From contig CBDFHC010000004.1 in NCBI GenBank assembly GCA_965247585.1, positions 881,460 through 945,459 of the forward strand: a stretch of 64,000 nt of DNA. Reading direction: 5' to 3'. The DNA is from Dehalococcoidia bacterium. GTDB taxonomy: Bacteria; Chloroflexota; Dehalococcoidia; Lucifugimonadales; GCA-2712585. Under the pieces are notes generated by a model that saw nothing but the letters and a program-made list of their open reading frames with translations, was not told the origin of the DNA and searched no databases. Below are positions 14,468 through 52,781 of this stretch, in pieces (the first letter of the stretch is position 1; every line of letters begins with the position of its first letter). The translations under genes were made by a program, and so were the position numbers.

Positions 14468-15421
14468 TCATTTCTGTCCAACGTCCGACACCTCTTCAAC
14501 AGGGGCGGTTCCGGTTGTACCCCGAGGTCTGGGAACGCAAAGCCGAGCGGTGGTTATGAAACCGGTGTGCGCCACCATCCGGTGGACCGGCCTCATGCTG
14601 CGCTCCGACACGTGCCACGGCCGGAGCATAAGCTCCACCGTTTCAACAAGCTGAAAGCTGCCGTGGGACTCCAGCTCCTGGGTAAGCCGGTGGACCTGGA
14701 GCACCGTAGGCAGGAAACTGAGAAATATGCCTCCCGGCGTCAGCAAATCCGCCGCTGAGGTAACTACTTGCCAGGGCTCCGGAACATCCAGCACCAACCG
14801 GTCCACATCCCGCTCTTCTATTCCCTGGTAGATGTCACCCTCTTTTACCTCCAGCGAGTACCCTTCTGGCACCAGCGGGGCAATGTTCTTTAGTGCCCGT
14901 TGCGCCTGTTCCCCACGTAGGTCATATGAAGTTATGCAGCCCTTGTGCCCAACTGCGCGCAGCAGGGCCAGAGTGAGCGCCCCGGAGCCAAACCCGGCCT
15001 CCACCACCCGGGCGCCCGGGAATATATCCCCCAGCATCAGGATGGCGCCCAGGTCCTTGGGATAAACCACCTGGGTGACCCGCTGCATCTCCAAAACGTA
15101 GTCCGAGAGGGTAGGTTTCAAGGCCAAGAGCCGGTGCCCGTTGCTGGTCTGAAACCACTCGCCCTGGTGGTGGCCCACCAGCTTGGCGTGCTCCAGGAAA
15201 CCCAGATGGGTGTGGAACACGCCTCCCTCCTTCAGAGTGACCAGGTATCGGCGCCCCTTGCGGTCAATCAGGAGGCTAAGGTCGCCTTCCTGGAACCTGG
15301 ACCGAGCAGCAGTCACTTTCGCGATTTCTCCCTCTCCCATCTCCTTCACCGGCGCTCTGTAGTGACCGGCGTCGTCCTCCATGTCGGGATCGTTGCTCAT
15401 CGCTTTCCAAAGCGCCGGCAC
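14468..15421 (-). CDS. trmI: tRNA (adenine-N1)-methyltransferase (TrmI/GCD14 family)
   Basis: 317-aa ORF. FQEGDLSLLIDRKGRRYLVTLKEG... N-terminal domain, then VVEAGFGSGALTLALLRAVG (SAM motif I) and DRLVLDVPEPW. Confidence 0.85.
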   Translation of the reverse strand: MPALWKAMSNDPDMEDDAGHYRAPVKEMGEGEIAKVTAARSRFQEGDLSLLIDRKGRRYLVTLKEGGVFHTHLGFLEHAKLVGHHQGEWFQTSNGHRLLALKPTLSDYVLEMQRVTQVVYPKDLGAILMLGDIFPGARVVEAGFGSGALTLALLRAVGHKGCITSYDLRGEQAQRALKNIAPLVPEGYSLEVKEGDIYQGIEERDVDRLVLDVPEPWQVVTSAADLLTPGGIFLSFLPTVLQVHRLTQELESHGSFQLVETVELMLRPWHVSERSMRPVHRMVAHTGFITTARLCVPRPRGTTGTAPVEEVSDVGQK

Positions 15422-15449: not shown

Positions 15450-15914
15450 CTACTTCACCCGGTCCAGTTGGGCCAGAATGTCCTCAGGGGCAGGCAAAAC
15501 GCCGGGCGGATACTCTTCACGGAATCGGACGGCGCCGGCCTTGTCCACAATGAGAACGGCACGCCTCGGCGCGCCGTTGGCCTCATTGTACAGGCCGTAG
15601 GCCTTCACCATCTCGCCGTGCGGATGGAAATCCGCCAGCAATGGATATTGTATGGTGCCCAGGGAGTTAGACCAGGCGCGATGGGAGTGTTGGGTGTCAC
15701 AACTAATGCCCAGGACCTGGGCATTCTTCTCCTCGAACTGGGCGTTGGCCCGGCTGAACGAGGAGACCTGGTTGGTTCAACCCCCTGTAAAGTCAAATAC
15801 ATGGAAAGCCAATACCACCATCTTTTCACCCTTGAACTGGGACAGAGATATTTGCTCTCCCGCCTGATTCGGCAGGCTAAAATCCGGGGCTGCCTGTCCT
15901 ACTTCCGCTGGCAT
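15450..15914 (-). CDS. peroxiredoxin (AhpC/TSA family, AhpE/BCP-like) with in-frame TGA at the peroxidatic-Cys position (candidate selenocysteine, codon 46)
   Basis: ATG at 15914-15912 with GGAGG 7 nt upstream. One frame reads ...VVLAFHVFDFTGG[TGA 15779-15777]TNQVSSF...VLGISCDTQHSHRAW...LLADFHPHGEM... to the stop at 15452-15450. The ORF track shows only the C-terminal 63 aa. Confidence 0.7.
15728..15766 (-). promoter_or_regulatory. candidate bacterial SECIS-like hairpin
   Basis: Begins 10 nt 3' of the TGA. An 8-bp stem UCUCCUCG / CGAGGAGA encloses an internal loop and a GGGC-CAAC-GCCC apical hairpin. Hand-folded only. Confidence 0.35.
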
Positions 15915-16021
15915 TCATTAACCTCCTATAGGCTACAATATTAGATGCGTTTCCTGGGATCAGTGTGGCCCGATTATACAGGCAGGTGGGGGTGGTTACT
16001 ACCAAATCTGGCGCTGCGTTC

Positions 16022-16104: not shown

Positions 16105-16180
16105 GCCCCAGTGGCGCAATGGTAGCGCAGCCGACTTGTAATCGGCAGGCTGGCGGGTTCGAGTCCCCCCTGGGGCTCCA
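16105..16180 (+). tRNA. tRNA-Thr (anticodon TGT), CCA encoded
   Basis: Acceptor GCCCCAG/CTGGGGC. Anticodon arm GCCGA-CTTGTAA-TCGGC. TTCGAGT T-loop. The T-stem or variable region carries one irregular position. Confidence 0.85.
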
Positions 16181-16266
16181 TCTCTGGCACCTGGAATTTT
16201 TTGGGCAAAACATGGCATGATATTGGTGCAGGCTACGGGCTATGCTAAACTACGTCCTAACCCTTT

Positions 16267-16354
16267 GGAGGGGTGGGTGAGTGGTTTATACCACCAGACT
16301 GTAAATCTGGCGCTCGAAAGGGCTTCGTAGGTTCGAATCCTACCCCCTCCACCA
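16267..16354 (+). tRNA. tRNA-Tyr (anticodon GTA), long variable arm, CCA encoded
   Basis: Acceptor GGAGGGG/CCCCTCC. Anticodon arm CCAGA-CTGTAAA-TCTGG. T-arm GTAGG-TTCGAAT-CCTAC. Confidence 0.9.
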
Positions 16355-16384
16355 CCAGCGTTACGGAATTAGGAGACACATTGC

Positions 16385-16460
16385 GCCCACATAGCTCAGA
16401 CGGTAGAGCACGTTCTTGGTAAGAACGGGGTCCCCGGTTCAAGTCCGGGTGTGGGCTCCA
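16385..16460 (+). tRNA. tRNA-Thr (anticodon GGT), CCA encoded
   Basis: Acceptor GCCCACA/TGTGGGC. Anticodon arm CGTTC-TTGGTAA-GAACG. T-arm CCCGG-TTCAAGT-CCGGG. Confidence 0.92.
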
Positions 16461-16512
16461 TCTGCTAAGATAACAAGTTGATTCCTGCGAAAGGACCCTG
16501 GAAGGAGCTTCA

Positions 16513-17718
16513 ATGGCAAAGCAGCGATATGAACGGGGAAAGCCCCATCTTAATGTAGGTACCATTGGTCACGTTGACCACGGGAAGACCACCCTGACCG
16601 CCGCCATCACCATGGCGCTGGCTGCAAGTGGGACCAAGACTCTAGTCCGCAAATTCGACACCATTGACAACGCACCGGAAGAGCGGGCCCGCGGCGTCAC
16701 CATCAACATTTCCCACATTGAGTACGAGACAGCCGATCGGCACTACGCTCATGTGGACTGCCCGGGCCATGCGGACTACATCAAGAACATGATCACTGGC
16801 GCGGCGCAGATGGACGGCGCCATTCTGGTGGTCAGCGCGCCGGACGGACCTATGCCCCAGACGCGGGAGCACATACTGTTGGCCCGTCAGGTGGAGGTCC
16901 CGAGAATCCTGGTGGCCCTCAACAAGGTGGACGCCATGGACGACGAGGAGTTGTTGGAGTTGGTGGAGCTTGAGGTCCGAGAGCTTCTGAGCCAATACGA
17001 CTACCCGGGTGATGACTCCCCCATAGTGAGGGTCAGCGCGCTGAAGGCCATGGAAGAGTTGGAAGCGGGCCAGAATGATGGCCCTGCCACGAATGGAATC
17101 CTGGACTTGGTTAACGCCATGGAAGAGTACATTCCCGTTCCCGAAAGGGCCAAAGACCTGCCCTTCCTCATGCCCATCGAGGATGTCTTCGGCATCAAGG
17201 GGCGTGGTACCGTCGTCACCGGCCGCGTGGAGCGCGGTACCATAAAGACCGGGGATAACGTAGACATTGTAGGCTTCGGCCAAGTGAAAGGTACCGTAGC
17301 CACCGGGCTGGAGATGTTCCACAAGACGCTGGACGAGTCCGAGGCCGGAGACGCCGTAGGCGTTCTTCTCCGTGGTGTTGAGCGCGAGGACGTGGAACGC
17401 GGCGAAGTTCTGGCCCGGCCGGGAAGCATCCAGCCACACGCCAACTACAAGGCCGAGGTGTACGTCCTGAGCAAGGAAGAGGGCGGGCGTCACACCCCCT
17501 TCTTCACCGGCTACAAGCCCCAGTTTTACATTCGCACTAGTGATATCACTGGAGAGATAAAGCTGGAAGAGGGTGTTGAGATGGTGATGCCCGGCGACAA
17601 TACAACCATGGAAGTTAACCTAATGTACCCCATCGCCATGGAGGCGGGCCTCCACTTCGCCATTCGAGAAGGTGGCCGGACCGTGGGCGCGGGGATAGTT
17701 ACCGAGGTGCTGGACTAA
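16513..17718 (+). CDS. tuf: translation elongation factor Tu
   Basis: 401 aa. [18 protein letters not shown] and NKVD are canonical EF-Tu GTPase motifs. GGAAGGAG upstream. Confidence 0.97.
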
Positions 17719-37799: not shown

Positions 37800-38867
37800 C
37801 TAGTCCGCCCACTCCAGCGGCAACGCCTTGCCTCGCTTGGGCAAAGCCACCGTGGCATTCCCGTGGGCCGTGCGGTTTCCCCCTTGGTTATGCAACTCGA
37901 TAAAGCATTCCGCCAGTCCGTAGTCTCCCTGGTCAGTCAGCGCGGTGACCTCACCGGAAAGGGAGAGCACATCGCCCGCCAGGTCCATGCCGCGGTGCTC
38001 TATGTAGTAACGCCGCAGCCAACCCTGTTCCCCGGCAAACCGCATCAGCAGCTCGCCAAAGTACTGGTTCTTTAGGCTGCCGTTTACCACTACGTTGGGT
38101 AGGTTCTGCCGAAACATGGCGAAGGGAAGGTCCCAGTGGATACGGGCATAGTTCCCGTTGGCCGCCGCCCAGCGCACCAGGTGCGTTGTGGTCACCGGCC
38201 CTTTTGTAATCACCGGTAGTTTCTGCCCTACGGCAACATCCTCAAAGTGCCGCTGCGGTTGGGAGTCCCACGGCGGCGGTAAGACGCTCTCGTCTCTGTC
38301 CGGCGGCGACACCGCCGGCAGGCGCACCTGCGCCTGGTCATCCACAACGTGGCTGGAGTCCTCTTTCAACTCCCGAAAGATGTTCAGTCTTCGGGCCTTA
38401 ACTACCACCTCTCCCCTCTGGTTGGTCTGCGTCTCCTCCCGCTCTACAAAGACCAACATGCCGGAGCGGCCTTCCTTCTCGTACACATCGGTCACCCGAT
38501 AGCGCCGCGTCAGGAGGTCGCCAACGAAAGCGGGCCTGCAGAAAGTCCACTCGGCCCCTCCGTTAAAGCCGTAACTCTTGATGGTGGTTGGTATCTCCAG
38601 GATACCTTCCTGCCCGGCCCCAAAGTAGTTGACGGGTTGACGCCACTCCTTCCATGTGGCCAGGGGCGGGCAGACCAACCCCCCAAAGCGACCCCGGCGA
38701 GCGTGCCCCTCATCCAGAAAGAGTGGGTTGGGGTACTCGATTGCGTCCGCCAAGTCAAAGACCATCTCCCGGGAGATGGGAAACAGGTTGGTCTCGGGCT
38801 CGAAGGAGGTGCCCACCAGGGCCTTCACCTCCGGGGTGAGCATGGAACGCACCAAGGAATCTACCAC
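37800..38867 (-). CDS. double hot-dog fold (FAS1-like dehydratase N-domain + MaoC-like C-domain) acyl-CoA hydratase/dehydratase
   Basis: 355 aa. The two halves each have hot-dog-type sequence, and the C-terminal half has LVRWAAANGNYARIHWD (MaoC-like). First gene of a three-gene minus-strand operon. Confidence 0.7.
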   Translation of the reverse strand: MVDSLVRSMLTPEVKALVGTSFEPETNLFPISREMVFDLADAIEYPNPLFLDEGHARRGRFGGLVCPPLATWKEWRQPVNYFGAGQEGILEIPTTIKSYGFNGGAEWTFCRPAFVGDLLTRRYRVTDVYEKEGRSGMLVFVEREETQTNQRGEVVVKARRLNIFRELKEDSSHVVDDQAQVRLPAVSPPDRDESVLPPPWDSQPQRHFEDVAVGQKLPVITKGPVTTTHLVRWAAANGNYARIHWDLPFAMFRQNLPNVVVNGSLKNQYFGELLMRFAGEQGWLRRYYIEHRGMDLAGDVLSLSGEVTALTDQGDYGLAECFIELHNQGGNRTAHGNATVALPKRGKALPLEWAD

Positions 38868-38996
38868 TTGTCGAAGACTTGGCTCCGGGGATGCTACTAC
38901 GCCCCTGTCAAAGGGTCAACGGGACGCCGGGCTGGCGGGTCACCCCGTTTCGCCGTCGGTGCTATACTCTCGCCACCAAACCGCTGGAGGCCATCT

Positions 38997-40142
38997 ATGC
39001 AGCCCACGTCTCACCAAGCCCCAGTCTACCAACGATATGGGGTGCGGCCTATAATCAACGCTGCGGGAAGCGTCACGCGATTAGGGGGGTCCAGGACCCG
39101 TCGGGAGGCGCTGGCCGCCATGGAGCAGGCCGCCGGGACCTTGGTGGATATGACCGACCTGAACGCCAGGGCCGGCGAGGTCGTGGCCCGAGTCACTGGA
39201 GCGGAGGCGGGCTTCATCTGTAACGGCGCCGCCAGCGGGCTGATCCTTCAAGCAGCCGCTGTCATCGCGGGCAACGACCCCGTGAAAATGGCGCGCCTGC
39301 CCCAGACGGACGGCATGAAGAACCAGGTCATCATCCAAACCATGCACCGTTTCCCCTATGACCAGACGTACCGGGCGGCCGGGGCGGAGTTGGTAGTCAT
39401 CGGCACGGCGCGGCGCACCGAGGCGTGGGAGCTGGAGGGCGCCATAAACGAGCGTACCGCCGCAGTGGCGTTCCTCTTTTCGCCCTTCACAGCCCGCACC
39501 GGCCTATCGTTGCCGCAGGTTGCGGAGATCGCCCACGCCCGCGGCGTGCCAGTGATTGTGGACGGCGCCTCCATGGTCCCGCCCCGGGAGAATTTGACCA
39601 ACTATGTGAAGATGGGCGCGGACCTTATTAGCATCAGCGGTGGCAAGGGCATCCGGGGACCCCAAGGCTCCGGCCTCCTCTTCGGCCGCAGGGACCTGGT
39701 GAAGGCGGCATCGGCCAACGCCAGTCCCAACCAGTTCCTGGGCCGGGGTATGAAGGTGTCCAAGGAGCAAATTATCGGCTTCCTCACCGCGCTAGAGTTG
39801 TTTGTGGAGGAGGACGAAGAGGCGGAGATGGCCGAATACCGCCGGAAGGCCCAGCATATAGTGGACGCGCTGATAGAAATTCCGGGGCTCACCGTTTCCG
39901 TGCAGCATGATGAACACGATTTTCTCATCCCCACCGCGCTGATAAAAATGGAAGAGTCATGGAACGGCCCCACCAGGGCAGATCTCCTACAGGCCCTGGA
40001 GTCCGGCGACCCGGCCGTCCACCTCCAGGCAATTTTTCTGCCGGAGAACCAGGTGGCGGTCGACCCGTTCAACGTGGACAACGAAGAGCTGGATGTGCTG
40101 ATACGCAGGCTCCGGGAGGAGTTGCTGCGCAACGGTGGCTAG
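38997..40142 (+). CDS. SelA-like / DgaE-family PLP-dependent enzyme (not a bona fide SelA)
   Basis: ORF 38349-40142 trimmed to ATG 38997 (GGAGG 6 nt upstream). IINAAGSVTRLGGS...VTGAEAGFICNGAASGL and SGGKGIRGPQGSG (PLP-Lys context). Confidence 0.7.
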   Translation: MQPTSHQAPVYQRYGVRPIINAAGSVTRLGGSRTRREALAAMEQAAGTLVDMTDLNARAGEVVARVTGAEAGFICNGAASGLILQAAAVIAGNDPVKMARLPQTDGMKNQVIIQTMHRFPYDQTYRAAGAELVVIGTARRTEAWELEGAINERTAAVAFLFSPFTARTGLSLPQVAEIAHARGVPVIVDGASMVPPRENLTNYVKMGADLISISGGKGIRGPQGSGLLFGRRDLVKAASANASPNQFLGRGMKVSKEQIIGFLTALELFVEEDEEAEMAEYRRKAQHIVDALIEIPGLTVSVQHDEHDFLIPTALIKMEESWNGPTRADLLQALESGDPAVHLQAIFLPENQVAVDPFNVDNEELDVLIRRLREELLRNGG

Positions 40143-40183: not shown

Positions 40184-40849
40184 CTAGTACTTGGAGACGT
40201 TTATCTCCGTCAGCTTGCCAGTGACCAGGAAGATTACCCGCTCGGCTATGTTGGTGGCCCGGTCCGCTATACGCTCCAGGTCATGGGCCACCCAAAGAAG
40301 GTATGTAGCCCGCTTGATGGTCTTTGGGTCCTCCGCCATGAAACTGAGTAGCTCCCGGTACACCTGGTCGTAGATGTCGTCCACCTGATCGTCGTCGTTA
40401 CAGACCTGGTGCGCAGCCACGATGTCCCGGTTGACGAAGGCGTCCAGGCTGTGGCGCAGCATCCCTGTGGCCATCTCCGCCATTCGCGGTATATCAATCA
40501 GGGGTTTCAGCGGAGGCTCGTCGCCCATCATCAGGCTGATCTTACCAATTCCCTCGGCGTAGTCGGCCATGCGCTCCAACTCGACGGAAACATGGAGAAT
40601 GGTGACAAGAATCCGGAGGTCCCGGGCAACCGGGCCCTGGGTAGCCATCACGTTGATGCAGCGCTCTTCTATATCAAACCGCTTATGGTCAATGAAATCG
40701 TCTTCATTAATCACCTCGCGAGACGCCGTTAGGTCGCGGCGCTTGAGGGCGTCCAGCGACTTGGCAATGGCTTTCTCCACCATGTTCCCCATCATGAGGA
40801 GCTCATCCTCCAGCGCCCTTAACTGAGAGCCTAATGCCGACGTCACCAT
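40184..40849 (-). CDS. phoU: phosphate-signalling regulator PhoU
   Basis: 221 aa with two PhoU repeats, each with an E/DxxxD-type motif (ERMADYAEGI, ERIADRATNI). Downstream of pstB. Confidence 0.92.
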   Translation of the reverse strand: MVTSALGSQLRALEDELLMMGNMVEKAIAKSLDALKRRDLTASREVINEDDFIDHKRFDIEERCINVMATQGPVARDLRILVTILHVSVELERMADYAEGIGKISLMMGDEPPLKPLIDIPRMAEMATGMLRHSLDAFVNRDIVAAHQVCNDDDQVDDIYDQVYRELLSFMAEDPKTIKRATYLLWVAHDLERIADRATNIAERVIFLVTGKLTEINVSKY

Positions 40850-40861
40850 TGCCTATACCCC

Positions 40862-41794
40862 CTAGCCAAAACGGCCGGTTATGAATGCCTCTGTGCGCTC
40901 GTCCTTTGGCAAGGTGAAGACCTGGCGCGTATCCCCAACCTCTACCACAAATCCGGCCCGTTCCGGGTTCATAGTCATGAATATCGTCTTGTGCGAAATT
41001 CGGGCCGCCTGCTGGATATTGTGCGTCACAATTACGATGGTGTAATGCTGCGACAACTGCCTGATCAGGTCTTCAATAGCCTGCGTGGCCACCGGGTCCA
41101 AGGCTGAGCAAGGCTCATCCATCAGGATCACCTCCGGATGGACCGCCAACGCCCTGGCGATGCACAGCCTCTGCTGCTGGCCTCCAGAAAGGTTGGTTGC
41201 CCTTTCCTTCAGCCGGTCCTTCACCTCATCCCACAGCGCCGCGCGGCGGAGGGAGTCCTCCACCAGCCCGTCCATGTCCACATCAAAACCGTTGATCCGA
41301 GCGCCGAAGGCTACGTTGTCATAGATGGACTTGGGAAACGGGTTGGGCTTCTGGAATACCATGCCAATTCTGAACCGGATTTCCGTTGGGTCCACGGCAG
41401 GATGGTATATATCCAAATCGTTGACCAGCACCTGCCCCTCTATCCTGGCGCCGGAGATGGCGTCATTCATCCGGTTAAAGCAGCGAAGCAGCGTGCTCTT
41501 GCCACAGCCAGAGGGGCCAATAATGGCGGTTACCCTGTTCTCCTGGATGTCTATACTGATGTCTTGCAGCGCCACGAAGCCGCCATAAACAACTCTCAGA
41601 TTTCCGGTGGACAGCTTCTTGGAACCCGGCGCCGCGGAGGAAGCCGCCTCCGCATCCCGGGACAGCAAGTCATCGGCAATTCTGATGCGCGTGTCCGAAG
41701 GAGGGGCGCCGGAATCATCCAGGCCGGGACTTTTCTCCGCCTCCGCGGTGGTGGACCCGTGGTTTGGGTCCGTTGGCCGTTCTGATATTGTCAC
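40862..41794 (-). CDS. pstB: phosphate ABC transporter ATP-binding protein PstB (with ~55-aa low-complexity N-terminal extension)
   Basis: Walker [10 protein letters not shown], signature LSGGQQQRL, Walker B ILMDEP. Start placed at GTG 41794, overlapping the pstA stop (GTGA). The longer ORF-track version overlaps pstA out of frame. Confidence 0.88.
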
Positions 41795-42672
41795 CCTTCG
41801 CTCCTTCGCTGGAACTTGTTTCTCAGGATAACCGCCCCAGCGTTCATCACGAGCAGCATGACCAACAACACTATGATACCTGCTGCGGCAAGCCCCTGAA
41901 AATCTTCCTGTGGACGGGTGGTCCAGTTGAATATCTGAATTGGGAGCACCGTGAAGGGGTCCAGAGGGCTGGTAGGGCTGAAGGCGATGAAGGTGAGGGC
42001 GCCGATCATAATCAGCGGCGCCGTTTCGCCAATGCCTCTGGACAGGGCAAGGATGGTGCCCGTCAGGATCCCGGGGACGGCCTGGGGCAGCACTACATGC
42101 CATGTGGTCTGCCAACGGGTGGCCCCCAGGGCATACGAGCCCTGTCTTAAGGAGCCCGGCACGGCCCTGATCGCCTCCTGGGACGCTATGATGATGATGG
42201 GCAGGATCAGCAGCGAGATGGTCAGCGCCCCGGCCACGACACTTCGGTCCAGCGCCATCCCGCGCACAAAGATAGTGAGCCCCAGCATCCCGTAAACGAT
42301 TGAAGGAACACCCGCCAGGTTGGCGATGTTCAGCTTGATGGCGGAGATCAACCAGTGCTTGGGGGCGTATTCCTCCAGGTAGATGGAGGCGCCCACCCCC
42401 AGCGGGAAGGCGAACAGCGCGGTGAATCCCATCAACCAGAGTGTCCCCAAGAGGGCGGACCTGATGCCCGCCCGGGCAGGGAACCGGGAAGGGAAGCTGG
42501 TAATGAAGTCCCAGTCCAGCCATTTGGCACCGTCCGTCAGGACATCGACCACCAGCGCGCCCAGCACCACCATGCCCAGCAGCGTGGCCGCCAGAATGAG
42601 GCCAAAGAAGATTGCAGCCCGCTTCCGCTGGGCGGATCGTTGGCGCTCCGGAATGCTGGTGGCCGTCGCCAC
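41791..42672 (-). CDS. pstA: phosphate ABC transporter permease PstA
   Basis: 293 aa, multi-TM, with EAA-loop region [23 protein letters not shown]. Synteny supports the call. Confidence 0.9.
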
Positions 42673-43634
42673 TAGTACTCCTCCCGGTAGCGCCGCACCA
42701 CCAGGTTCGCCACCACGTTCAACAGGAAGGTCATCACGAAGAGGGTCATACCTACAGCGAAGATGGTGAGGTACTCGATGGTGTCTTGAGGGGTGTCGCC
42801 CAGGCTGGTCTGCGCTATGTAAGCGGTCATGGTCTGCACCCCCTCAAAGGGGTTGGCCGTCAGGTTTGGGATGGAGCCTGCGGCCACGGTCACGATCATC
42901 GTCTCGCCTATGGCGCGAGAAATCGCCAAGATGAAGGCGGCAATGATGCCTGACAATGCGGCGGGCACCACTATTCGAAGGGAGACTTGAAGCCGGTTTG
43001 CTCCCAACGCGTAGGCCCCGTCTCTAAGGGACCTGGGCACGGCCATCATGGCGTCTTCGCTCAACGAAGAGACCATTGGAATGATCATGATTCCCATCAC
43101 TAGCGCGGCACTGGCAACGTTGAAGATGGCCGCATCAGGATTTACCAGGCGAACGACGTGGGGAGTCACGAAGGTGAGGGCGAAGAAGCCATATACCACC
43201 GTTGGTATGCCCGCCAGCACCTCAATGGCGGGCTTCACGATACGCCTGAGCCTGTCTGGGGCGTACTCGCTGAGGAAAATTGCCGTGGCCAGCCCAACAG
43301 GAAGCGCCACAATGGAGGCGCCCGCGGCTACCAGCAACGTCCCTCCAACCAACGGCCAGATGCCAAAGCTCTGCGGAACGAAGTTGGGCGTCCAATGGGT
43401 ACCGCCCAGGTAATCCCAAAAGGGCACCTGCCGGAAGAAATTCACCGTCTCCGTCATCAGGGTGACAATGATCCCTACGGTGGTCACCACGGAAACCAGG
43501 GCGCACAGCAAAAGAACGCCGTGAATGGTCCCCTCGCTCATCCGGCGGGCCCGCCGCGACCGGCCAATGGGAGGCATTCCTCCAGCGTTCCCTAAATTCG
43601 ACGGCACAGAGCTGCCTTGTCTAAGCGCCGCCAT
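42672..43634 (-). CDS. pstC: phosphate ABC transporter permease PstC
   Basis: 320 aa, multi-TM, with [19 protein letters not shown]. Synteny supports the call. Confidence 0.9.
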
Positions 43635-43675
43635 TCAGCACACGACCATAGGGCGGTCAGTTATGATCAGGAGCG

Positions 43676-44686
43676 TCACTCCTCCGCCAACAGATCCTCA
43701 ATGGTTAAGCCCACCTGGGAACCACCGGGGAACATGGTACCGGTGACGCGGCCAAGCAACCGCTGGTTCACCAACTGGTACAACCCGGCAGGAAAGCCCA
43801 CGTAACCCACGTCCTTCACCAAAATCACGCTTTCAGGGTCCAGATAGAATTGGACAAACTCCACTACTTCCGGCTTATCCTCCAGGCTGCTCTTGCTTAC
43901 GTAAATCAACAGTGGCCGACTTAGCGGCTGGTACACGCCCCCACTGATGGTCTGTTCAGAGGGCAGCACACTCCCGCTGCCAGGGTCCACCGCCACCGGC
44001 TTCAACTTACCCTTGTTCTCTCCGTAGTAGGCGTAGCCAAAGTACCCCAGCGCAAATCTTTCGCTGGATACCGCTTGCACCAGGACGTTGTCGTTGGCCG
44101 ATGCGATGTAGTCCGGCCTGGAGGCGCCCTCCTCTCCAACAATGGCCTCAGTGAAATAGTCGAAGGAACCGGAATCAGTGTCTGCTCCTACCAGCAACAG
44201 CTTCTCGTCGGGCCAATGGGGGCGCACATCGGACCACCTCTCTACTTCAGAGCCCGGTTCCCAAATTCGTTTTAGCTCGTCCACTGTTATCGATGTGGCC
44301 CAATCGTTATCGGGATTCACTATGATCGAAAGCCCGTCAAAGGCGACGGGCAACTCCAGGAACTCGATGCCGTTCTTGGCACACAGCTCTATTTCGGACT
44401 GTTTTATCGGCCGAGAAGCATCCGAGATGTCCGTTTCGCCCCGGCAGAACTTTTTGAAACCGCCCCCAGTGCCTGAGACTCCCACCGTCAGCCTTACCCT
44501 TGGGTGGAGTAGCTGAAACTCTTCTGCCATCGCCTCGGTGATGGGGAAGACGGTGCTGGAGCCGTCCACCTTGACGGTCCCCGATAGACCGCTGCCCCCG
44601 CCACAGGCCAACAGCAACGACAGGGCCACTAAGGCCAGCAGCACTACCTTTCGAGGGGAGGTCAGGGCAGACAGATGTGGCTCCAC
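43676..44686 (-). CDS. pstS: phosphate ABC transporter substrate-binding lipoprotein PstS
   Basis: 336 aa. Lipobox LLLAC, then GSSTVFPI and DISDASRP, typical of the PstS family. Confidence 0.9.
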
Positions 44687-44745
44687 CGACAGGTATGCGT
44701 GGGGGTCATAACGGGCCTATGGTAGTGTGGTTGATGGCTGCTTCG

Positions 44746-44772
44746 TGTTAACGGATTGTTAACATTTGTTAG
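44746..44772 (-). promoter_or_regulatory. Pho box candidate: three direct (C/T)TAACA repeats at 10-11 bp spacing
   Basis: The minus strand reads CTAACAaatgTTAACAatccgTTAACA, 60-86 nt upstream of the pstS start. This matches the TT(A/T/C)ACA direct-repeat architecture known for PhoP/PhoB-type regulators. Confidence 0.5.
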
Positions 44773-44844
44773 CAGACGGCTAGAGTTCAGGATAGGGGGC
44801 GGCAGGGGGACCAACCGGACATAGGGGTTAGCAGCGGTGGAAGG

Positions 44845-46238
44845 CTACCGGGGTGGGGTTGACCGGTCGGCGGGGACGGTGAAGGAGAAGGTGCTGCCCT
44901 CGCCCTCCCGGCTCTCGGCCCAGATGCGGCCCCCGTGGGCTTCGACGATGTGCTTGGCGATGGCGAGGCCGAGGCCGGTGCCCCGGTCCTCCCGGGAGCG
45001 GTCAATCTTGTAGAACCGCTCGAAGGCGTGGGGCAGGTGCTCCGGGGCGATGCCGACACCACTGTCTTTGACCTGCACCTCAATGTTTCCGTTGTTGGCC
45101 AAGGTGTCAACCCGTACCGTGCCGCCGGGTCCGGTGAACTTGACGGCGTTCTCCACCAGGTTGGAGACGACCTGCTGGAGCCTGGCCTCATCTCCGATGG
45201 CCCGGGGAAGGCCTACGGCGGGCTGGACGGAGAGACGGACGTTCCTGGCGTTTGCCAGCGGGCGGTGGAGCTCCACGGCTTCGGCGAGGGGCTTGTGGAT
45301 GTCCAGGCTTTCGAGGTGGAGCACGGCCTCACCGCTTTCCAGCCGGGAGAGGTTTAGCAGCTCTTCTACCATTCGCGTCATGCGGTCAACGTTTCTATGG
45401 ATCCGCTCCATGAACTGGGCGGCGACGTCCGGCTCTGCCAGGGCGCCGTTTTCGAGGGTCTCCACCGCGGCCTTGACCGAGGCGAGGGGGGTGCGGAGCT
45501 CATGGGAGACGTTGGCGACGAACTCCCGGCGGGTGGTCTCTACGCGGCGGGCCTGGGTGAGGTCATGGAGGACGAGGAGGACACGATCTCCGGCGGGGGA
45601 GGCCAGGGGCGACGCGATGACGCTGAGGTACCTTCGGCTGGGCGAGAGCTCCAACTCCAGGTGCTGTGGCGAACCGGCCTGCTGGCACAGGGCCACCAGG
45701 CTGTTCAGCTCATGGTCCCGTACCACCTCAACGAACCGGGCGACGGAACTCTGGGGCGCCGAGAGCGCTAAAAGCTCCTCCGCGGCGGGGTTCTGGAGGC
45801 TGATGTTGCCGCTGGCGTCTATGAGGACCACGCCATCGCTCATGGTGGCGAGAACGGTGGAGAGACGGTCTCGCTGGGAGGAAGACTCGGTGATCATCTG
45901 CTTCAAGGCAGCCGCCATGGCGTTGAAGGCTTCGGCGAGCTCCTGGGTCTCTTCGGAGGAGCCCGCAGGGATACGGTGGTCGAGGTCGCCGGCGGCCAGC
46001 TTTCGGGCGGCATCGGTAAGGTTGCGGATGGAGCGGGTGCTTCGACGGGCGATAAGGTAGGCGAGGACGACGGCGAGGAATGCCACTACCGCGGCGGCGA
46101 TGCCGGTGGTGCGAATGATTCGACCAGAATTGCTACCCTGGGCGTCCACCACCAGGAATACGGTGACTACTGTCATGGCCGCCAGGATGAGCAGCATGTA
46201 GGCCAGGGCAATGCGCCACTGGATGCTGCGCGGCGCTC

Positions 46239-46242
<4 letters not shown>
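44845..46242 (-). CDS. phoR: sensor histidine kinase (PhoR/SenX3-like: TM-HAMP-PAS-HisKA-HATPase)
   Basis: 465 aa. H-box FVANVSHELRTPL, N/G boxes (NLVENAVKF, DSGVGI, GTGLGLAI). Overlaps the upstream regulator gene by 4 nt. Confidence 0.85.
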
Positions 46243-46940
<698 letters not shown>

Positions 46941-46996: not shown

Positions 46997-49729
46997 CTAG
47001 ACCCGGAAGACCTTCATAACCTCGTCCCCCAGGTGGTTAATTACCTTCACTGCGATGCGCCCCGACTTGGGCTTGTCAAAGGGGCGAGAGGTGTCGCTGT
47101 TGAGCGTGGCCCAGGCTTCCTCGTTGATCTCGGCCTTGAGGGTGGTCTTGAGGGACTTGTACGGGTCGTTGGCGCCCAGGAAATAGGCGTGGCGGACGAA
47201 GAAACTTTCCTCGTTGTAGTCGGAGTCTATGAACCAGCAAGCGATCCCCTCGGCTCCGTCGCTCCGGACTTCACCCGTTTGCGGGTGAAACACGTCCACG
47301 CCGTTTACCTTCACCCGTATCTGCCCGTTATCTACGTCCAAGATGTCGATGTCTGGCTCGCCGAAGATGACGAACAGGTTCCCCTTGCCTGTGTTCTTCA
47401 GGTCGCCGGCCATGTGCAGGTCGGCGTTCATCCGCGCCTTGAGCACCGGGATGCGGCCTAGCTTGTCGAACTCCGTGGAGTGGGCGTCGTAGTTGAAGGC
47501 GCAGGTAATCAAAGCGTCAAAACCCCCGTCGCCTGCCTCACGAGCCGCGGCGACCAGGTCCGGGCGGGACACGGTGCCGAACTCCGGGCCGACAAATATG
47601 GCGGCCCGCTTTTCGTTGCCTGATTCTTCATCGCCTTCGAAATACCGCCCCTCGGCGCAGACCATGTGCCCCGGCCAAGGCGCAACGGACGTGAAGATAA
47701 CCTTGTCTTCCTTGTGGGCCTGCTGCACGCCGGAGATTTTGACGTTCTCCAGGACCATCTGGACGAAGTCCTGCTCCCCTCTGTGGCCGTTTGTTGATTC
47801 TCCAACGCCGTGAATCAACTCGTCGTTCTCGTCCACGGCCAGGACACGATGGGGAGATATGCTCTCGACGGTGAAGGGTCCAGCCACGCGCACCTTATTC
47901 CGGTCCTCGTAGGCTTTGTCGTAGAGGTGTTCAAAGTTGGCTTTCGCGGCTATGGAGGCGTCGATCTCCTTGTGACGGGCTATCCGCTGCTCCCACCACT
48001 GGGCGTGCAGCTTCTTCACTTTGTCTGGCCAGTTATCGTCAGCGGCACTCGGGATCTCCCACTCCTCCCAGGTCGTGCCCAGCGCTTGGTTGAGCTGCTG
48101 GTGCAACGGTTCCAGCACCTCCTGAAACAGCTCCCAGATGACGTCGATTTCGACGTTGTGGGCGATGTCGCGCAAAGTTATATGTGGCACCCGCTCGTAG
48201 ACAAATCCCTGTCGAATGTTGCCGCGCGTTGGAGCTTCAGAGGGAGCGGAGTGCGTAAGATCGGCTTCCTTAATCTGGCCATCGGGGCTGTCAGCCAGCA
48301 GGTAGTAGGGATAGCGCGCTCCCATGATCCGGGCCCGCGCCAGGGCGAGGGCGACCCTCGATGTGTCGATGGTGATCCACCTCCGGCCCCACTGCTCCGC
48401 CACGTAGGCAGTGGTGCCAGAACCACAAGTTGGATCGAGAACAAGATCGCCGGGGTCAGTTGCCATCTGGAGACAACGTTCAATAACTTTACGATGGGTT
48501 TGAACCACGTAAACCTTATCGCTAGCAAATGCTCCGAATTGCGTATCAAGCCATACGTTGTTCACCTTCCCCCGAGGCCGCTCGTCAGCATACTTCTTCC
48601 AACGAATCTGCCTTCCACTATACCGAACCACTCGGTCGGCCCACTCACGGCGAGGTAAATTCTCAGTCGCGAAGGCCCATTGCCGACTTGCCGTTGGCTG
48701 GAATATCTCGTTCCTAAAAGTTAAAGGAACGGTCCGAGTCTCACTGGGATGCTGAGATGTCAAATCTCCTAATTCATACTTGCCCCTCTCGTCTTCACCT
48801 TGAGGAACAAAATCAGGATCAGAAGAAAAGAGCTGCCTGAACTTTACAAATTGCACATTTTTGCCATACCAAAGAAGGTAATCACACACCGTATCAAGGT
48901 TGGCAGATGTTCTACCAGTCGAGGTAACGAAAGAGACAATGCTTATGAAGTTCTTGTCTCCGAATACCTCATCTAGCAGTGCACGAACGCGATGAACGTT
49001 TTCATCCCCAATCTGCACGAATACCGATCCGGTGTCGCCTAGTAGATCCCGTGCCACTGTTAACCGGTCGCGCAAATAGGTTAGATAGGAGTGAATCCCA
49101 TCTCTCCAGGTATCACGAAACGCCTTGACCTGCTCCGGCTCGCGGGTGATGTGGGCGGCGTTCCCATCGGTCGCGTCGCGGCTGGTGGTCGACCACTGGA
49201 AGTTGGAGTTGAACTTGATGCCGTAAGGCGGGTCGATGTAGATGCACTGGACCTTGCCCCGCAGCCCTTCTCGCTCAGCCAGTGACGCCATCACCTGGAG
49301 GCTGTCGCCCAGGATCATACGGTTGCTCCAGTTGGCATCGTGCTGGTAAAACTCGGTCTTGGCGCCCTCGCTGGGAAGCCCGTTGAAGTCGGCGAAGAGA
49401 TTGAGCTGGTGCTCTTCAGAAGCTCTGTCTGATTTGCTTTGGCGCAGCAGGTCGTCAATCAGCACCTTGGGGTGTACCTTCTCCTGGATATAAAGCGGAG
49501 GGGCCTGCACCACCAGGTCGGACCAGTCTTGCTCGTCCTTCCCCCGCCAGACCAGCTGGGGGTCCAGGTCGCGGTTCCGGCGCTGGTAGGCTAACTGTAT
49601 GGGGCTTTGCACGTCCTCGCCCATCACTGATTGGTATTCCGCCGTGGCGATGTACCTGCGAGACGCTTCCTCGTGGATGAGGGTCTCCACGGACTTTTCA
49701 GTTGCTCTTCTGGGTCTCGTTGACGCCAT
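46997..49729 (-). CDS. restriction-modification DNA methyltransferase (Mod-like, N6A/N4C beta-class order: DPPY before FxGxG)
   Basis: CIYIDPPYGIKFNSNF (motif IV) precedes VLDPTCGSGTTAYVAEQWGRRWITID (motif I). Start at ATG 49729, with GGAGG between it and the res stop (TAAGGAGGctcgtATG). Confidence 0.85.
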   Translation of the reverse strand: MASTRPRRATEKSVETLIHEEASRRYIATAEYQSVMGEDVQSPIQLAYQRRNRDLDPQLVWRGKDEQDWSDLVVQAPPLYIQEKVHPKVLIDDLLRQSKSDRASEEHQLNLFADFNGLPSEGAKTEFYQHDANWSNRMILGDSLQVMASLAEREGLRGKVQCIYIDPPYGIKFNSNFQWSTTSRDATDGNAAHITREPEQVKAFRDTWRDGIHSYLTYLRDRLTVARDLLGDTGSVFVQIGDENVHRVRALLDEVFGDKNFISIVSFVTSTGRTSANLDTVCDYLLWYGKNVQFVKFRQLFSSDPDFVPQGEDERGKYELGDLTSQHPSETRTVPLTFRNEIFQPTASRQWAFATENLPRREWADRVVRYSGRQIRWKKYADERPRGKVNNVWLDTQFGAFASDKVYVVQTHRKVIERCLQMATDPGDLVLDPTCGSGTTAYVAEQWGRRWITIDTSRVALALARARIMGARYPYYLLADSPDGQIKEADLTHSAPSEAPTRGNIRQGFVYERVPHITLRDIAHNVEIDVIWELFQEVLEPLHQQLNQALGTTWEEWEIPSAADDNWPDKVKKLHAQWWEQRIARHKEIDASIAAKANFEHLYDKAYEDRNKVRVAGPFTVESISPHRVLAVDENDELIHGVGESTNGHRGEQDFVQMVLENVKISGVQQAHKEDKVIFTSVAPWPGHMVCAEGRYFEGDEESGNEKRAAIFVGPEFGTVSRPDLVAAAREAGDGGFDALITCAFNYDAHSTEFDKLGRIPVLKARMNADLHMAGDLKNTGKGNLFVIFGEPDIDILDVDNGQIRVKVNGVDVFHPQTGEVRSDGAEGIACWFIDSDYNEESFFVRHAYFLGANDPYKSLKTTLKAEINEEAWATLNSDTSRPFDKPKSGRIAVKVINHLGDEVMKVFRV

Positions 49730-49739
49730 ACGAGCCTCC

Positions 49740-52700
49740 TTACAGGACTTGTTGGATTGAAACCGAACCAATCATCTCGTTAAACCCGGACGCGATCCGG
49801 TAGACATCGGTAAACTCGGCGAAGGCCCAGCGGCCATACTGACCGAGGTTGTTTACCCCCGGAACCCAGTAGGTTTCCATGGTGGATTTCTTTTCCTTGG
49901 CGTCCTCGCGCCGGTAGCCCTTGATCTCGACGACAAGGTGCAACGGGTCGTCGTGACCGTCGTCCACAAGCACAATGAAATCCGGCAGGTAGGTGCGGGA
50001 GTCGGAGCCGTAGCGGTAGGGCACTTCCAGACCCAGGTTGTGGTTCTTGACATAGGCCTTCACCTGAGGATGGGACTCGGCCATGCGGCAGAACTCCGCC
50101 TCCCAATCGCTGTCCAGGATGACCCAGTTGATGTGACATCGGCGGGCGTCGGTCTGCCAGCGGCTTGTCTTGGACGTGGTGAAGTTAACGTATTGGGTGG
50201 AACCGGTGGGATTGTAGGGGTCCAGCATAGCTTTGACGGGCCGCTCGCCCACCAGGGAACGGGTGATGGCGGCGGTGATGCGTTCGCAGGCCATGTCGGC
50301 CAGCTCCTGGTACATGAGCTGCGCCGGATACGTGCCGCCCCGGCAGACCAGGCAATCGTCAAGCCACTGCTTGGTGATCCGCTTGAGCTGTCCGAACAGG
50401 TAGAGCTTGGGTTCCTCGCCGGGGTCGCGCCACTTGGTATAGAGCAGACGCTGGGTGATGTGAAACAGTAAGGTGGACCGCCGCAGGTCCCGCGTGTGGA
50501 ACAGGTTGAGGTTCACCCCCTCGCCAATGATCGCCTCGTTCCTTGTGATGGAGGGACCTACCAGCTGGGGAGTAAGTTCCAACACCGAGTCGCTGTTGAA
50601 ATCCGCCGTGAGCCGTTCCTCAGGCAACTCGACCCGGTATCCCGAGACGCGGGGGAACGTGATTTCCAAGGAATCCCGGTCCGGACGAACCGCCTTGACT
50701 GGGATGGTCTGGCGGGGCGGTTGCGGCGGGGCGACCACTGGCCTAGCCGTGAAGTCGAAGGGAATCCCCAGCACGTCGGCGTATTCGACGTTGAACCGGT
50801 TGTCTTCGTTGAGATCGTAGGACTGGCGGCGAAGGGCGCGCCCGATAACCTGCTCGCACAGGAGCTGGGTTCCGAAGGCCCGCACCCCAAGCACATGGGT
50901 GACGGTGTTGGTGTCCCAGCCTTCGGTGAGCATGGATACCGAAACTACGCAGCGGATAGATTCGCCCAGGCGGTCTTCTTTGCCGACGGTGTTCATGACC
51001 TCCCGGAGCAGGTCCTGGTCGGTGATGTTGTCCGCCTGGCGCCGGTCGCCCGTTCGTGCAACAATCTCACGTCTGAACCGCTCAATTTCATCTTTGGCCA
51101 TGTCGCGGAAATTACTGTCCAGGGCATCTCCGGACTCTAGTTGTTCGCTGTCGATCAGCAACGTGCGCGGCCGCGGGTACGGGCGTCCGTGCTCGTCAAA
51201 GTTCCGAAACAACTCCAGCCGCCCGTTCACCAGAGTAGGTGAGCCATCGTCGTTCTCCCGGTGGAAACCTGAGATATAGTCGTAGACCAGCTTGGACGTA
51301 GAGGTGTTGTTGCAGACCACGATGAAGCAGGGATGCACCCGAATACCGGCTTCACTCCAAAGATTGTAGGTCTTCTCGTAATGTCCGTAGAGGGCTTCCA
51401 GCGCTGTCTGTAGCTGGACGGGCAGGGCCAGCGGATCAAGGATTTTGGCCTTTCGCCGGCCTTGTCTGGGCATCTGGGCTCGAATGTTCTCCCATAAGTT
51501 GCGGAACCTGGGCATATCCCCGCCGGGAATGTTGTCGGCCACGGGCACACGCGGCAGCTTGACGATGCCGGATTCAATGGCGTCCATCAATGAGAAGTCG
51601 CTCATGGTCCATGGAAACAGTGTGCCTTCGGCATAACCCGAGCCGCGGAGAAAGAAGGGAGTGGCCGAAAGGTCTATGACGTTGGCGAGTCCAAGCTTCC
51701 GATTGACGGCTTCTAGGCCGGAGATCCAGAGACGGGCCGCCTCATTGTTCTTCTCCGCCTCCTTCTTCTCTTCGCCCTTTAGGTCCTCTTCCTCTTCTTC
51801 TTCTCCAGGCTTTTCACGGTAGCAGTGATGCCCCTCGTCGTTTAGAACCAGGATGTTTTTGATGCCCATCAGATCGGGCATCACCCGCTGGAGCATCTGA
51901 CCCTCGGTCTCCAGCGTGTCCAACGGCTCGCCCCGGCCCTGGAGCAGCGAACGGCCGCCCCTGGAAAGCTCCAACCGGTCGCGGAGTTTGAAAGCGTGGT
52001 AGTTGGTGATGACGATCTTGGCGCGGTCCAAGCCGCCAAGCATATCGTTGGGCACCAATTCCCGGGAGGCATAGTAGCTGTCTGGGTCGTTGGGCTGGAG
52101 CACGCGCAAGCGGTCGCGGATAGTCAGACCGGGCGCAACAACCAGGAAGCCGCGGGTGAATCTGTTGCTGTTGGGCCGGCGCACGGCGTTGATGGTCTGC
52201 CAGGCGATGACCATGGCCATGATGGTGGTCTTCCCTGCGCCGGTGGCCAGCTTTAGGGCCAGCCGCATCAGTTCCGGGTTGGCCCCGTTGTTGGCATTGG
52301 CCAGGTAGTCTAGGAAGCCTCTCCCCGCCCTCCCCGCCTTTGGGGCTACCTCGGCCAGCCATATGGCGGTCTCAATAGCCTCTATTTGGCAGAAGAAGGG
52401 CAGAATGTTATTGAAACGGTGATGGCGCCGATGCTGAAGCAGGCGAGCGGTCTCGGGCGTGACTTGCCAGTCGCTTGGATTTCGCAAACCTCTCCATTGG
52501 TCTACACGGCGGCGGAGCTCATTGATATTTGAGGAGGTGGTTTCGTATTGCTGGTCCTTGGTCGAGAGACCTAGGCCTTCATCGAAAACCAACTGGTGCT
52601 GGGCCGCTGCTGCTTTGCGCTTACGGGGCTTTGGAATCGGTGTGATGAATTCGGCGCTTCGACGGTTTTCTATGATCTGCTGCGTCGGCTGCCCTTCGGT

Positions 52701-52781
52701 GTCAAGTTCCCAGTGCCGCGACGGGTGCTCGTAAGGAGAATTGAGGATAGGACGCTCGTAAAATTGGTTTTCCGTCACCAT
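49740..52781 (-). CDS. restriction enzyme Res-like subunit (SF2 helicase + C-terminal PD-(D/E)xK nuclease)
   Basis: 1013 aa. Walker A LATGAGKT, DEAH-like LNDEGHH, SATP, helicase motif VI region QVIGRALRR, and a C-terminal YLPDF...VVEIKGY nuclease motif. Confidence 0.85.
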   Translation of the reverse strand: MVTENQFYERPILNSPYEHPSRHWELDTEGQPTQQIIENRRSAEFITPIPKPRKRKAAAAQHQLVFDEGLGLSTKDQQYETTSSNINELRRRVDQWRGLRNPSDWQVTPETARLLQHRRHHRFNNILPFFCQIEAIETAIWLAEVAPKAGRAGRGFLDYLANANNGANPELMRLALKLATGAGKTTIMAMVIAWQTINAVRRPNSNRFTRGFLVVAPGLTIRDRLRVLQPNDPDSYYASRELVPNDMLGGLDRAKIVITNYHAFKLRDRLELSRGGRSLLQGRGEPLDTLETEGQMLQRVMPDLMGIKNILVLNDEGHHCYREKPGEEEEEEDLKGEEKKEAEKNNEAARLWISGLEAVNRKLGLANVIDLSATPFFLRGSGYAEGTLFPWTMSDFSLMDAIESGIVKLPRVPVADNIPGGDMPRFRNLWENIRAQMPRQGRRKAKILDPLALPVQLQTALEALYGHYEKTYNLWSEAGIRVHPCFIVVCNNTSTSKLVYDYISGFHRENDDGSPTLVNGRLELFRNFDEHGRPYPRPRTLLIDSEQLESGDALDSNFRDMAKDEIERFRREIVARTGDRRQADNITDQDLLREVMNTVGKEDRLGESIRCVVSVSMLTEGWDTNTVTHVLGVRAFGTQLLCEQVIGRALRRQSYDLNEDNRFNVEYADVLGIPFDFTARPVVAPPQPPRQTIPVKAVRPDRDSLEITFPRVSGYRVELPEERLTADFNSDSVLELTPQLVGPSITRNEAIIGEGVNLNLFHTRDLRRSTLLFHITQRLLYTKWRDPGEEPKLYLFGQLKRITKQWLDDCLVCRGGTYPAQLMYQELADMACERITAAITRSLVGERPVKAMLDPYNPTGSTQYVNFTTSKTSRWQTDARRCHINWVILDSDWEAEFCRMAESHPQVKAYVKNHNLGLEVPYRYGSDSRTYLPDFIVLVDDGHDDPLHLVVEIKGYRREDAKEKKSTMETYWVPGVNNLGQYGRWAFAEFTDVYRIASGFNEMIGSVSIQQVL

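Follow-up and report, generated by a model that had tools for sequence, protein, structure and literature searches.

Selenocysteine (Sec)-containing peroxiredoxins have been known since 2001, with PrxU of Eubacterium acidaminophilum as their prototype; its NCBIfam model is NF040737. The bacterial selenocysteine insertion sequence (bSECIS) has its prototype in E. coli fdhF. A Cys-containing point of reference is AhpE of Mycobacterium tuberculosis (Rv2238c; PDB 1XXU, 1XVW and 4X0X), a 1-Cys, mycoredoxin-dependent peroxiredoxin. Here, we analysed a 64-kb stretch of DNA from a Dehalococcoidia bacterium (hereafter the window) and, within it, a minus-strand gene with an in-frame TGA that very probably encodes an AhpE-like Sec-peroxiredoxin through recoding of this codon. 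An earlier reading, made from the letters of the window only, had proposed recoding at this gene, and the comparative evidence assembled below supports that interpretation. The main features of the locus, with the evidence for each, are the following:

15450-15914, minus strand: AhpE-like peroxiredoxin gene, 154 residues with a predicted Sec at residue 46, plus the TAG stop (sequence, translation, Pfam, AhpE match, pN/pS)
15777-15779, minus strand: UGA codon 46, predicted Sec at the peroxidatic (catalytic) position (TGA/Cys correspondence in homologs, alignment to AhpE Cys45)
15922-15927, minus strand: Shine-Dalgarno sequence AGGAGG, 7 nucleotides (nt) 5' of the ATG at 15914-15912 (direct reading)
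15728-15766, minus strand: SECIS-like hairpin (fold, covariation, TGA-type specificity, reduced synonymous divergence)

The peroxiredoxin frame and the TGA codon in its homologs

Direct translation of the minus strand from ATG 15914-15912 to TAG 15452-15450 gives an open reading frame (ORF) of 154 sense codons, in which TGA 15779-15777 (codon 46, context HVFDFTGG-[TGA]-TNQVSS) is the sole internal stop; the translated ortholog loci begin at a Met equivalent to that of the window peroxiredoxin. The mechanical ORF list cuts the gene into a 45-residue ORF (15777-15914) and shorter downstream ORFs. The sequence-only reading had described a 154-codon AhpC/TSA-type peroxiredoxin hidden in this way from the ORF caller, with a GGAGG 7 nt upstream of its ATG, a TGA at the position of the peroxidatic Cys and in-frame, family-typical sequence on both sides of it. 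Its coordinates and translation proved exact, the GGAGG lies within the AGGAGG at 15927-15922, and the family and homolog data that follow bear out the rest.

Translated with Cys at codon 46, the protein reaches 129.2 bits against Pfam AhpC-TSA (PF00578; cut-off 26), the match beginning at residue 5 and spanning profile positions 1-123 of 124, while the Redoxin family comes second with 68.8 bits. Membership in the fold is supported by sequence evidence at E = 1e-27 to 1e-37. The T-x-x-C/U motif of peroxiredoxins is present as Thr43-Gly-Gly-U46, together with the conserved active-site Arg118. The Pro of the longer PxxxTxxC/U motif is absent, with Val39 at position -7; this is a clade-specific departure that leaves fold membership unaffected, since the profile score supports the family.

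A search of PDB sequences returned M. tuberculosis AhpE as the nearest solved relative (E = 8e-27, 97 bits). The seven top matches are all this protein or a close relative (90-97 bits), and the next peroxiredoxin classes reach at most 75 bits. The alignment covers residues 4-139 of proteins that are 153-154 residues long in both cases, and it pairs codon 46 with the peroxidatic Cys45 of AhpE (FTGG-[46] versus FTGI-C45). Both proteins share the FTG-x-C/U active-site context, a DFxPHG motif and the conserved Arg. In contrast to the window protein, AhpE uses Cys as catalytic residue and retains the active-site Pro; it also has ISVG in place of the GISCD strand that holds Cys72, the only other Cys of the window protein, and thus offers no counterpart to this residue. 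Best hits, a length of 154 residues and the lack of a C-terminal resolving Cys all point to the AhpE-like subfamily, an assignment made by best hits. Several of the Cys-type homologs carry the JGI name 'mycoredoxin-dependent peroxiredoxin'.

How does the gene compare with the described Sec-peroxiredoxins? Like the PrxU type, it combines an AhpC/TSA fold with a conserved Arg and with a predicted Sec in T-x-x-U that replaces the peroxidatic Cys, and in both cases a hairpin that lies within the coding sequence, just 3' of the UGA, would direct its recoding. Unlike PrxU, it scores below the cut-off of the equivalog model NF040737 (69.6 versus 270 bits), has a short, AhpE-like scaffold of 154 residues, carries Val or Ile in place of the Pro and has Gly-Gly before the Sec. 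Indeed, no NCBIfam model attains its cut-off in a scan of the protein, and NCBI annotations truncate the gene for this reason. The gene would thus work like a known kind of selenoprotein yet sit on a different, AhpE-like branch; our literature search found no paper connecting AhpE with selenoproteins.

Does the TGA recur in related genomes? A survey with one genome per GTDB species gave 34 loci (L001-L034), each of which was translated in the matched frame. In all 18 closest loci (L001-L018, 49-78% identity), codon 46 is TGA; their sources are Dehalococcoidia, other Chloroflexota and Thermomicrobiales metagenome-assembled genomes (MAGs), with several closed chromosomes among them. Orthologs lie on the complete chromosomes OY282371.1, OZ253467.1, OX638324.1, OY762063.1 and OZ250180.1. 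At 29-44% identity, the more distant loci L019-L034 belong to other phyla or are paralogs; those that extend over the site, 15 of which were aligned there, carry a TGC or TGT codon. Neither in the genome loci nor in the best 120 clusters of a 5.8-billion-protein database did we find a homolog above ~50% identity with Cys at the site. In a set of 111 sequences, all 79 Cys-type homologs have Cys there, and the neighbour-joining tree of this set unites the 32 TGA-type sequences in one clade with no Cys-type sequence within it, which suggests a single origin of the Sec type.

The best 120 clusters have Cys at the site in 64 cases, a start just downstream of it in 42, Trp in 12, and a frameshift and a Leu in one each. 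The Trp-type clusters (P0001-P0009, P0011, P0012 and P0024) hold a TGA translated under code 4. The downstream-starting gene calls (P0014-P0023 and others) include NCBI entries from closed Dehalococcoidia chromosomes, and the truncated database entries are C-terminal fragments of 87-105 residues that begin at an internal Met, Leu or Val; these starts vary among the orthologs (MGISCD, MLGVSCD, LFRQYNG, MANPLFEE, MHNAEFEE). Both the downstream starts and the Trp calls look like the artefacts expected from gene calling across a TGA. The single Leu is a TTA at 239-241 of L037 (protein P0010), a single-base difference on one 696-bp contig that retains the hairpin sequence further downstream; the codon is TGA in the sister clusters P0011 and P0012. 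We considered Leu as a third state of the site and rejected it, the TTA probably being a sequencing error or a rare null allele.

Selection acts alike on the two parts of the frame: the ratio of nonsynonymous to synonymous differences (pN/pS; Nei-Gojobori, 90 ortholog pairs) is 0.249 before the TGA (codons 1-45) and 0.248 after it (codons 47-153). Both parts are thus translated and equally constrained, and this rules out that the gene is a pseudogene, that the TGA is an assembly error or that the C-terminal fragment is translated independently.

The Sec-type sequences also share an active-site signature, [HY]-[VI]-x-[DS]-[FW]-T-G-G-U. Position -7 is Val or Ile in 32/32 Sec-type sequences versus Pro in 79/79 of the Cys type, and Gly-Gly precedes the Sec position throughout the 32. 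Thr43 and Arg118 are invariant in the clade (32/32 each), and Arg118 is equally present in 79/79 Cys-type sequences. Cys72 (codon 15701-15699, minus strand) occurs in 24 of the 32 Sec-type sequences and in none of the 79 Cys-type ones, which have Val there. This residue appears to co-vary with Sec and could be a resolving thiol.

The hairpin 3' of the UGA

The sequence-only reading had placed an 8-bp stem enclosing a GGGC-CAAC-GCCC hairpin 10 nt downstream of the UGA, and the region folds as described. The lower stem, UCUCCUCG/CGAGGAGA, pairs 15766-15759 with 15735-15728 and begins 10 nt past the UGA; above it follow a 3-nt bulge, a 3-bp helix, a 1x1 internal loop and a 4-bp upper stem (GGGC/GCCC). 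The apical loop is CAAC (15747-15744), and its first base lies 29 nt after the UGA.

We examined covariation in an alignment of 14 distinct Sec-type sequences, with pairing partners slid by 1-3 columns and 500 shuffles as controls. Standard pairing is found in 86.7% of the cells compared with 39-51% in the slid controls, 8 of the 15 pairs show compensatory double changes that retain pairing, and none of the 500 shuffles attains the observed values. Several of the compensations fall on synonymous third positions: a Ser codon (TCG/TCA) changes together with a Phe codon (TTC/TTT), giving G-C in eight sequences, A-U in six and a broken pair in none. The compensatory changes of L015 and L017 arose independently of those in the L003-L008 group. 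RNAalifold yields the same hairpin structure.

The hairpin is specific to the TGA type. Folding of the 57 nt that follow the active-site codon, done for all homologs (19 TGA-type and 15 Cys-type genes), gave a mean minimum free energy (MFE) of -21.9 kcal/mol (z -2.8) for the former versus -10.8 kcal/mol (z +0.46) for the latter (Mann-Whitney p = 6e-7). A stable hairpin 10 nt past the TGA is present in 19/19 TGA-type genes and at the corresponding place in 0/15 Cys-type homologs. Synonymous divergence is 0.35 over the hairpin versus 0.50-0.54 elsewhere in the gene. The hairpin thus co-occurs perfectly with the TGA and is selected as RNA, and the comparative evidence places it far beyond chance.

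Readings of the UGA codon

Standard bacterial Sec recoding is the best-supported reading of UGA-46. During translation, the codon would escape being read as a stop, as the hairpin, acting as a bSECIS element, would tether the complex of SelB, GTP and Sec-tRNA(Sec) to the ribosome; Sec would be inserted at codon 46, and translation would proceed as far as TAG 15452-15450. The selenolate of U46 in the finished enzyme, positioned by Thr43 and Arg118, would attack hydroperoxides and be converted to a selenenic acid, which would then be reduced by a thiol. This thiol may be external, from thioredoxin or mycoredoxin, or, as we speculate, that of the clade-specific Cys72.

Could the TGA be a genuine stop in a pseudogene, in a nonsense allele or through an assembly error? 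Standard ORF calling does split the gene, and the TTA of P0010 indicates that single-base variants occur at the site. However, this very codon is TGA in the species-level genomes of 18 relatives and likewise in 12 additional clusters of metagenomic origin. Repeated nonsense mutations at one codon, kept to a divergence of 49% identity, are not credible, nor is a shared assembly artefact plausible across independent projects and sequencing technologies. The pN/pS of 0.25 on either side and the conservation, with covariation, of a hairpin found only with the TGA type stand against a dead or erroneous gene as well, and we give this explanation practically no credence. The sequence-only reading had argued that recoding is likelier than a random nonsense mutation, and the TGA in 18/18 orthologs with its conserved hairpin agrees. 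The alignment of homologs at codon 46, which it proposed as a check, gave TGA in close relatives and Cys in distant ones; close relatives with an intact Cys codon and no hairpin, which it named as contrary evidence, did not turn up. Its further statement that Sec-peroxiredoxins are an established bacterial selenoprotein class is in line with the literature, where Prx (TxxU) is listed among the experimentally validated bacterial families (PMC13188914).

An alternative in which the gene is alive and the stop is real would have it give two separate products, a 45-residue peptide and the C-terminal two-thirds made from an internal start. The many database entries that consist of such 87-105-residue fragments would fit. 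Yet no internal start is conserved among the orthologs, the C-terminal fragment would have neither the catalytic residue nor Thr43 and would miss the first beta-strands of its thioredoxin fold, and the N-terminal 45 codons are equally constrained and match the family profile from residue 5 onwards. Two products are extremely unlikely on this evidence. We also consider it very unlikely that the UGA is decoded without selenium, either because of a reassignment of the kind seen in codes 4 and 25, to Trp or Gly, or because a near-cognate tRNA (for Trp or Cys) reads through it, perhaps aided by the hairpin. Such decoding would agree with the Trp at the site in some public gene calls, with TGA being a minority stop in the window and with the Sec machinery not being found there. 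Against it, the 42 Pfam-supported window genes end in TAG 28 times, in TGA nine times and in TAA five times, and the genes that end in TGA include those for ribosomal protein L10, TrmI and PstS; thus, UGA is not reassigned. Apart from the peroxiredoxin, none of these 42 genes needs an internal TGA. An enzyme with Trp or Gly at a site that is the catalytic Cys in 79/79 Cys-type homologs would be dead, which does not fit the purifying selection on the gene; the Trp calls themselves are, we infer, explained by metagenome gene callers that chose the code-4 model on short contigs. Finally, SelB-dependent recoding has as its signature a UGA in place of a redox Cys with a hairpin 10 nt past it (PMC13188914).

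Several observations weigh against Sec recoding. In the 64-kb window, neither ARAGORN nor Rfam found a tRNA-Sec, and none was found in loci L001-L018. SelA, SelB and SelD were likewise not found in the window, by Pfam scans or by tblastn with the E. coli proteins, nor in the 6-kb loci of the relatives. The fold of the single sequence is of modest significance: the MFE is -29.4 kcal/mol for a 71-nt stretch, with z = -2.15, and 3 of 200 shuffles fold equally well. A permissive Rfam search of the gene region gave no SECIS family match; its sole match, nhaA-I (E = 4.7), is at chance level and was dismissed. Lastly, the apical loop departs from the consensus that Zhang and Gladyshev gave for bSECIS elements, for which we follow the summary in PMC13188914 (Fig. 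2). This consensus calls for a loop of 3-9 nt, an upper stem of 4-16 bp, a UGA-to-loop distance of 16-37 nt, an MFE of at most -7.5 kcal/mol and, further, a G within the first two loop positions. As a stem-loop within the ORF and directly 3' of the UGA, the window hairpin resembles the canonical element, and its geometry lies within every one of these ranges (loop 4 nt, upper stem 4 bp, 29 nt, MFE about -22 kcal/mol). Unlike the canonical loop, its CAAC has a G at neither of its first two positions, and for one to stand there two G-C pairs of the MFE fold would have to open. Among the orthologs the loop is CAAC, UAAC or GAAC, with only GAAC (L006, L007, L009, L010 and L012) obeying the rule; it varies in this way because an Ala codon has its synonymous third position at the first base of the loop. 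Since ~12.6% of the bacterial selenoprotein genes in BSepDB are without a canonical SECIS (PMC13326102), we regard the missing G as a minor departure, which would be unusual yet not unprecedented and would not contradict recoding.

The tblastn searches with the E. coli queries led to other genes: SelB hit EF-Tu only, SelA a single ORF only, and SelD nothing. This ORF (38349-40142, plus strand) was rejected as SelA; it has a Pfam SelA match of 50.9 bits, but its NCBIfam SelA score is 58.6 bits versus a cut-off of 268. It scores 236 bits (cut-off 385) with the DgaE or 'selA_rel' family, TIGR01437, and would be a homolog of the DgaE-family ammonia-lyases, which depend on pyridoxal phosphate, easily mistaken for Sec machinery. 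The maximal ORF overlaps a minus-strand dehydratase-domain gene (37800-38867), and its true start is probably near 39000. An in-frame-TGA scan of the window gave 96 mechanical candidates, and besides the peroxiredoxin none combined a redox motif with coding support; the others are off-frame overlaps of annotated genes or stop/start junctions.

The lineage itself has a record of selenoproteins, which lends indirect support to the presence of the Sec machinery. Chloroflexi were recorded with selenoproteins as early as 2006 (PMC1794560, Table 2), and two Dehalococcoidia MAGs, having 49 and 46 selenoprotein genes, belong to the ten bacteria of BSepDB that are richest in such genes (PMC13326102, Table 2). 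To build this database, which takes in only species with a Sec pathway, GTDB genomes were searched by tblastn for Sec/TGA pairs (PMC13326102). A generic peroxiredoxin query should detect the present clade, and thus, judging from the design of the database, the clade is very likely already catalogued there under 'peroxiredoxin'.

Within the Sec reading, one may go further and regard the Chloroflexota Sec-AhpE clade as a mechanistically distinct subclass, marked by Sec, the loss of the Pro, the gain of Cys72 and the non-canonical loop. We consider this step doubtful. If it were true, Cys72 on the neighbouring strand would be an internal resolving thiol that forms a selenenylsulfide, and a SECIS loop without the canonical G would imply a lineage-specific mode of recognition by SelB.

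Gene neighbourhood and meaning for the lineage

Directly 3' of the peroxiredoxin lies a conserved gene:

14468-15421, minus strand: TrmI/GCD14-type tRNA methyltransferase (Pfam GCD14 and TrmI-like_N)

The order of peroxiredoxin, TrmI-type methyltransferase, Methyltransf_28 gene and citrate synthase is kept in L001-L015, and this conserved downstream order indicates that the peroxiredoxin locus is orthologous among them. The true start of the TrmI gene probably lies ~30-40 codons inside the maximal ORF, as the ortholog alignments begin at residues 31-43. Because no terminator-like site was found between the peroxiredoxin and TrmI genes, the two may be co-transcribed; the neighbourhood is uninformative on the redox partner of the enzyme.

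Upstream of the peroxiredoxin gene and divergent from it, the window has tRNA-Thr(TGT), tRNA-Tyr(GTA), tRNA-Thr(GGT) and tuf (EF-Tu) at 16105-17718 (plus strand), and nusG and the L10 gene come after tuf. The 3-kb flanks of the relatives contain no tRNA gene except one tRNA-Thr in L017, and their loci have no EF-Tu match; thus, the peroxiredoxin locus is syntenic on its downstream side and not on its upstream side.

Elsewhere in the window, two adjacent minus-strand genes (46997-52781) encode an N6_N4 DNA methylase of 924 residues and a ResIII helicase / RE_endonuc protein of 1013 residues, and look like a Type III restriction-modification system. A complete phosphate-uptake regulon occupies 40184-46940 (minus strand), with PhoU, PstB, a Pst permease and a PstS-like binding protein, and also holds a PAS/HAMP histidine kinase and an OmpR-type response regulator. 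The maximal pstB ORF (553 residues) carries ~300 surplus N-terminal codons that overlap another ORF, its true start lying later.

The stop usage of the window is a further observation. At ~60% G+C, TGA is normally the commonest stop, and the dominance of TAG in the window contrasts with what is expected of a genome of this composition. We speculate that UGA stops are avoided in a selenoprotein-rich lineage; a lineage-specific release-factor or compositional effect could equally be the cause. RF1 is encoded in the window, while RF2 is not among its genes.

What does the finding mean for the lineage and the enzyme family? Knowledge of recoding as such is unchanged, as the literature already describes both Sec-peroxiredoxins and Dehalococcoidia rich in selenoproteins (PMC13188914, PMC13326102). 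The conceptual interest is modest, with an active-site motif and a SECIS loop that are mildly unusual, and the practical value lies in the correction of annotation. Indeed, annotation fails systematically at this gene: the public calls are either C-terminal fragments that have lost the catalytic residue or proteins with a Trp at the active site. Because these calls are truncated or mistranslated and the clade lies outside every NCBIfam model, many genomes of Dehalococcoidia and other Chloroflexota would have their antioxidant capacity and selenium dependence under-reported. For enzymology, the clade would offer a natural, compact scaffold of the 1-Cys type that carries Sec and an altered motif, VxxxTGGU, and that could clarify which changes accompany the transition from Cys to Sec.

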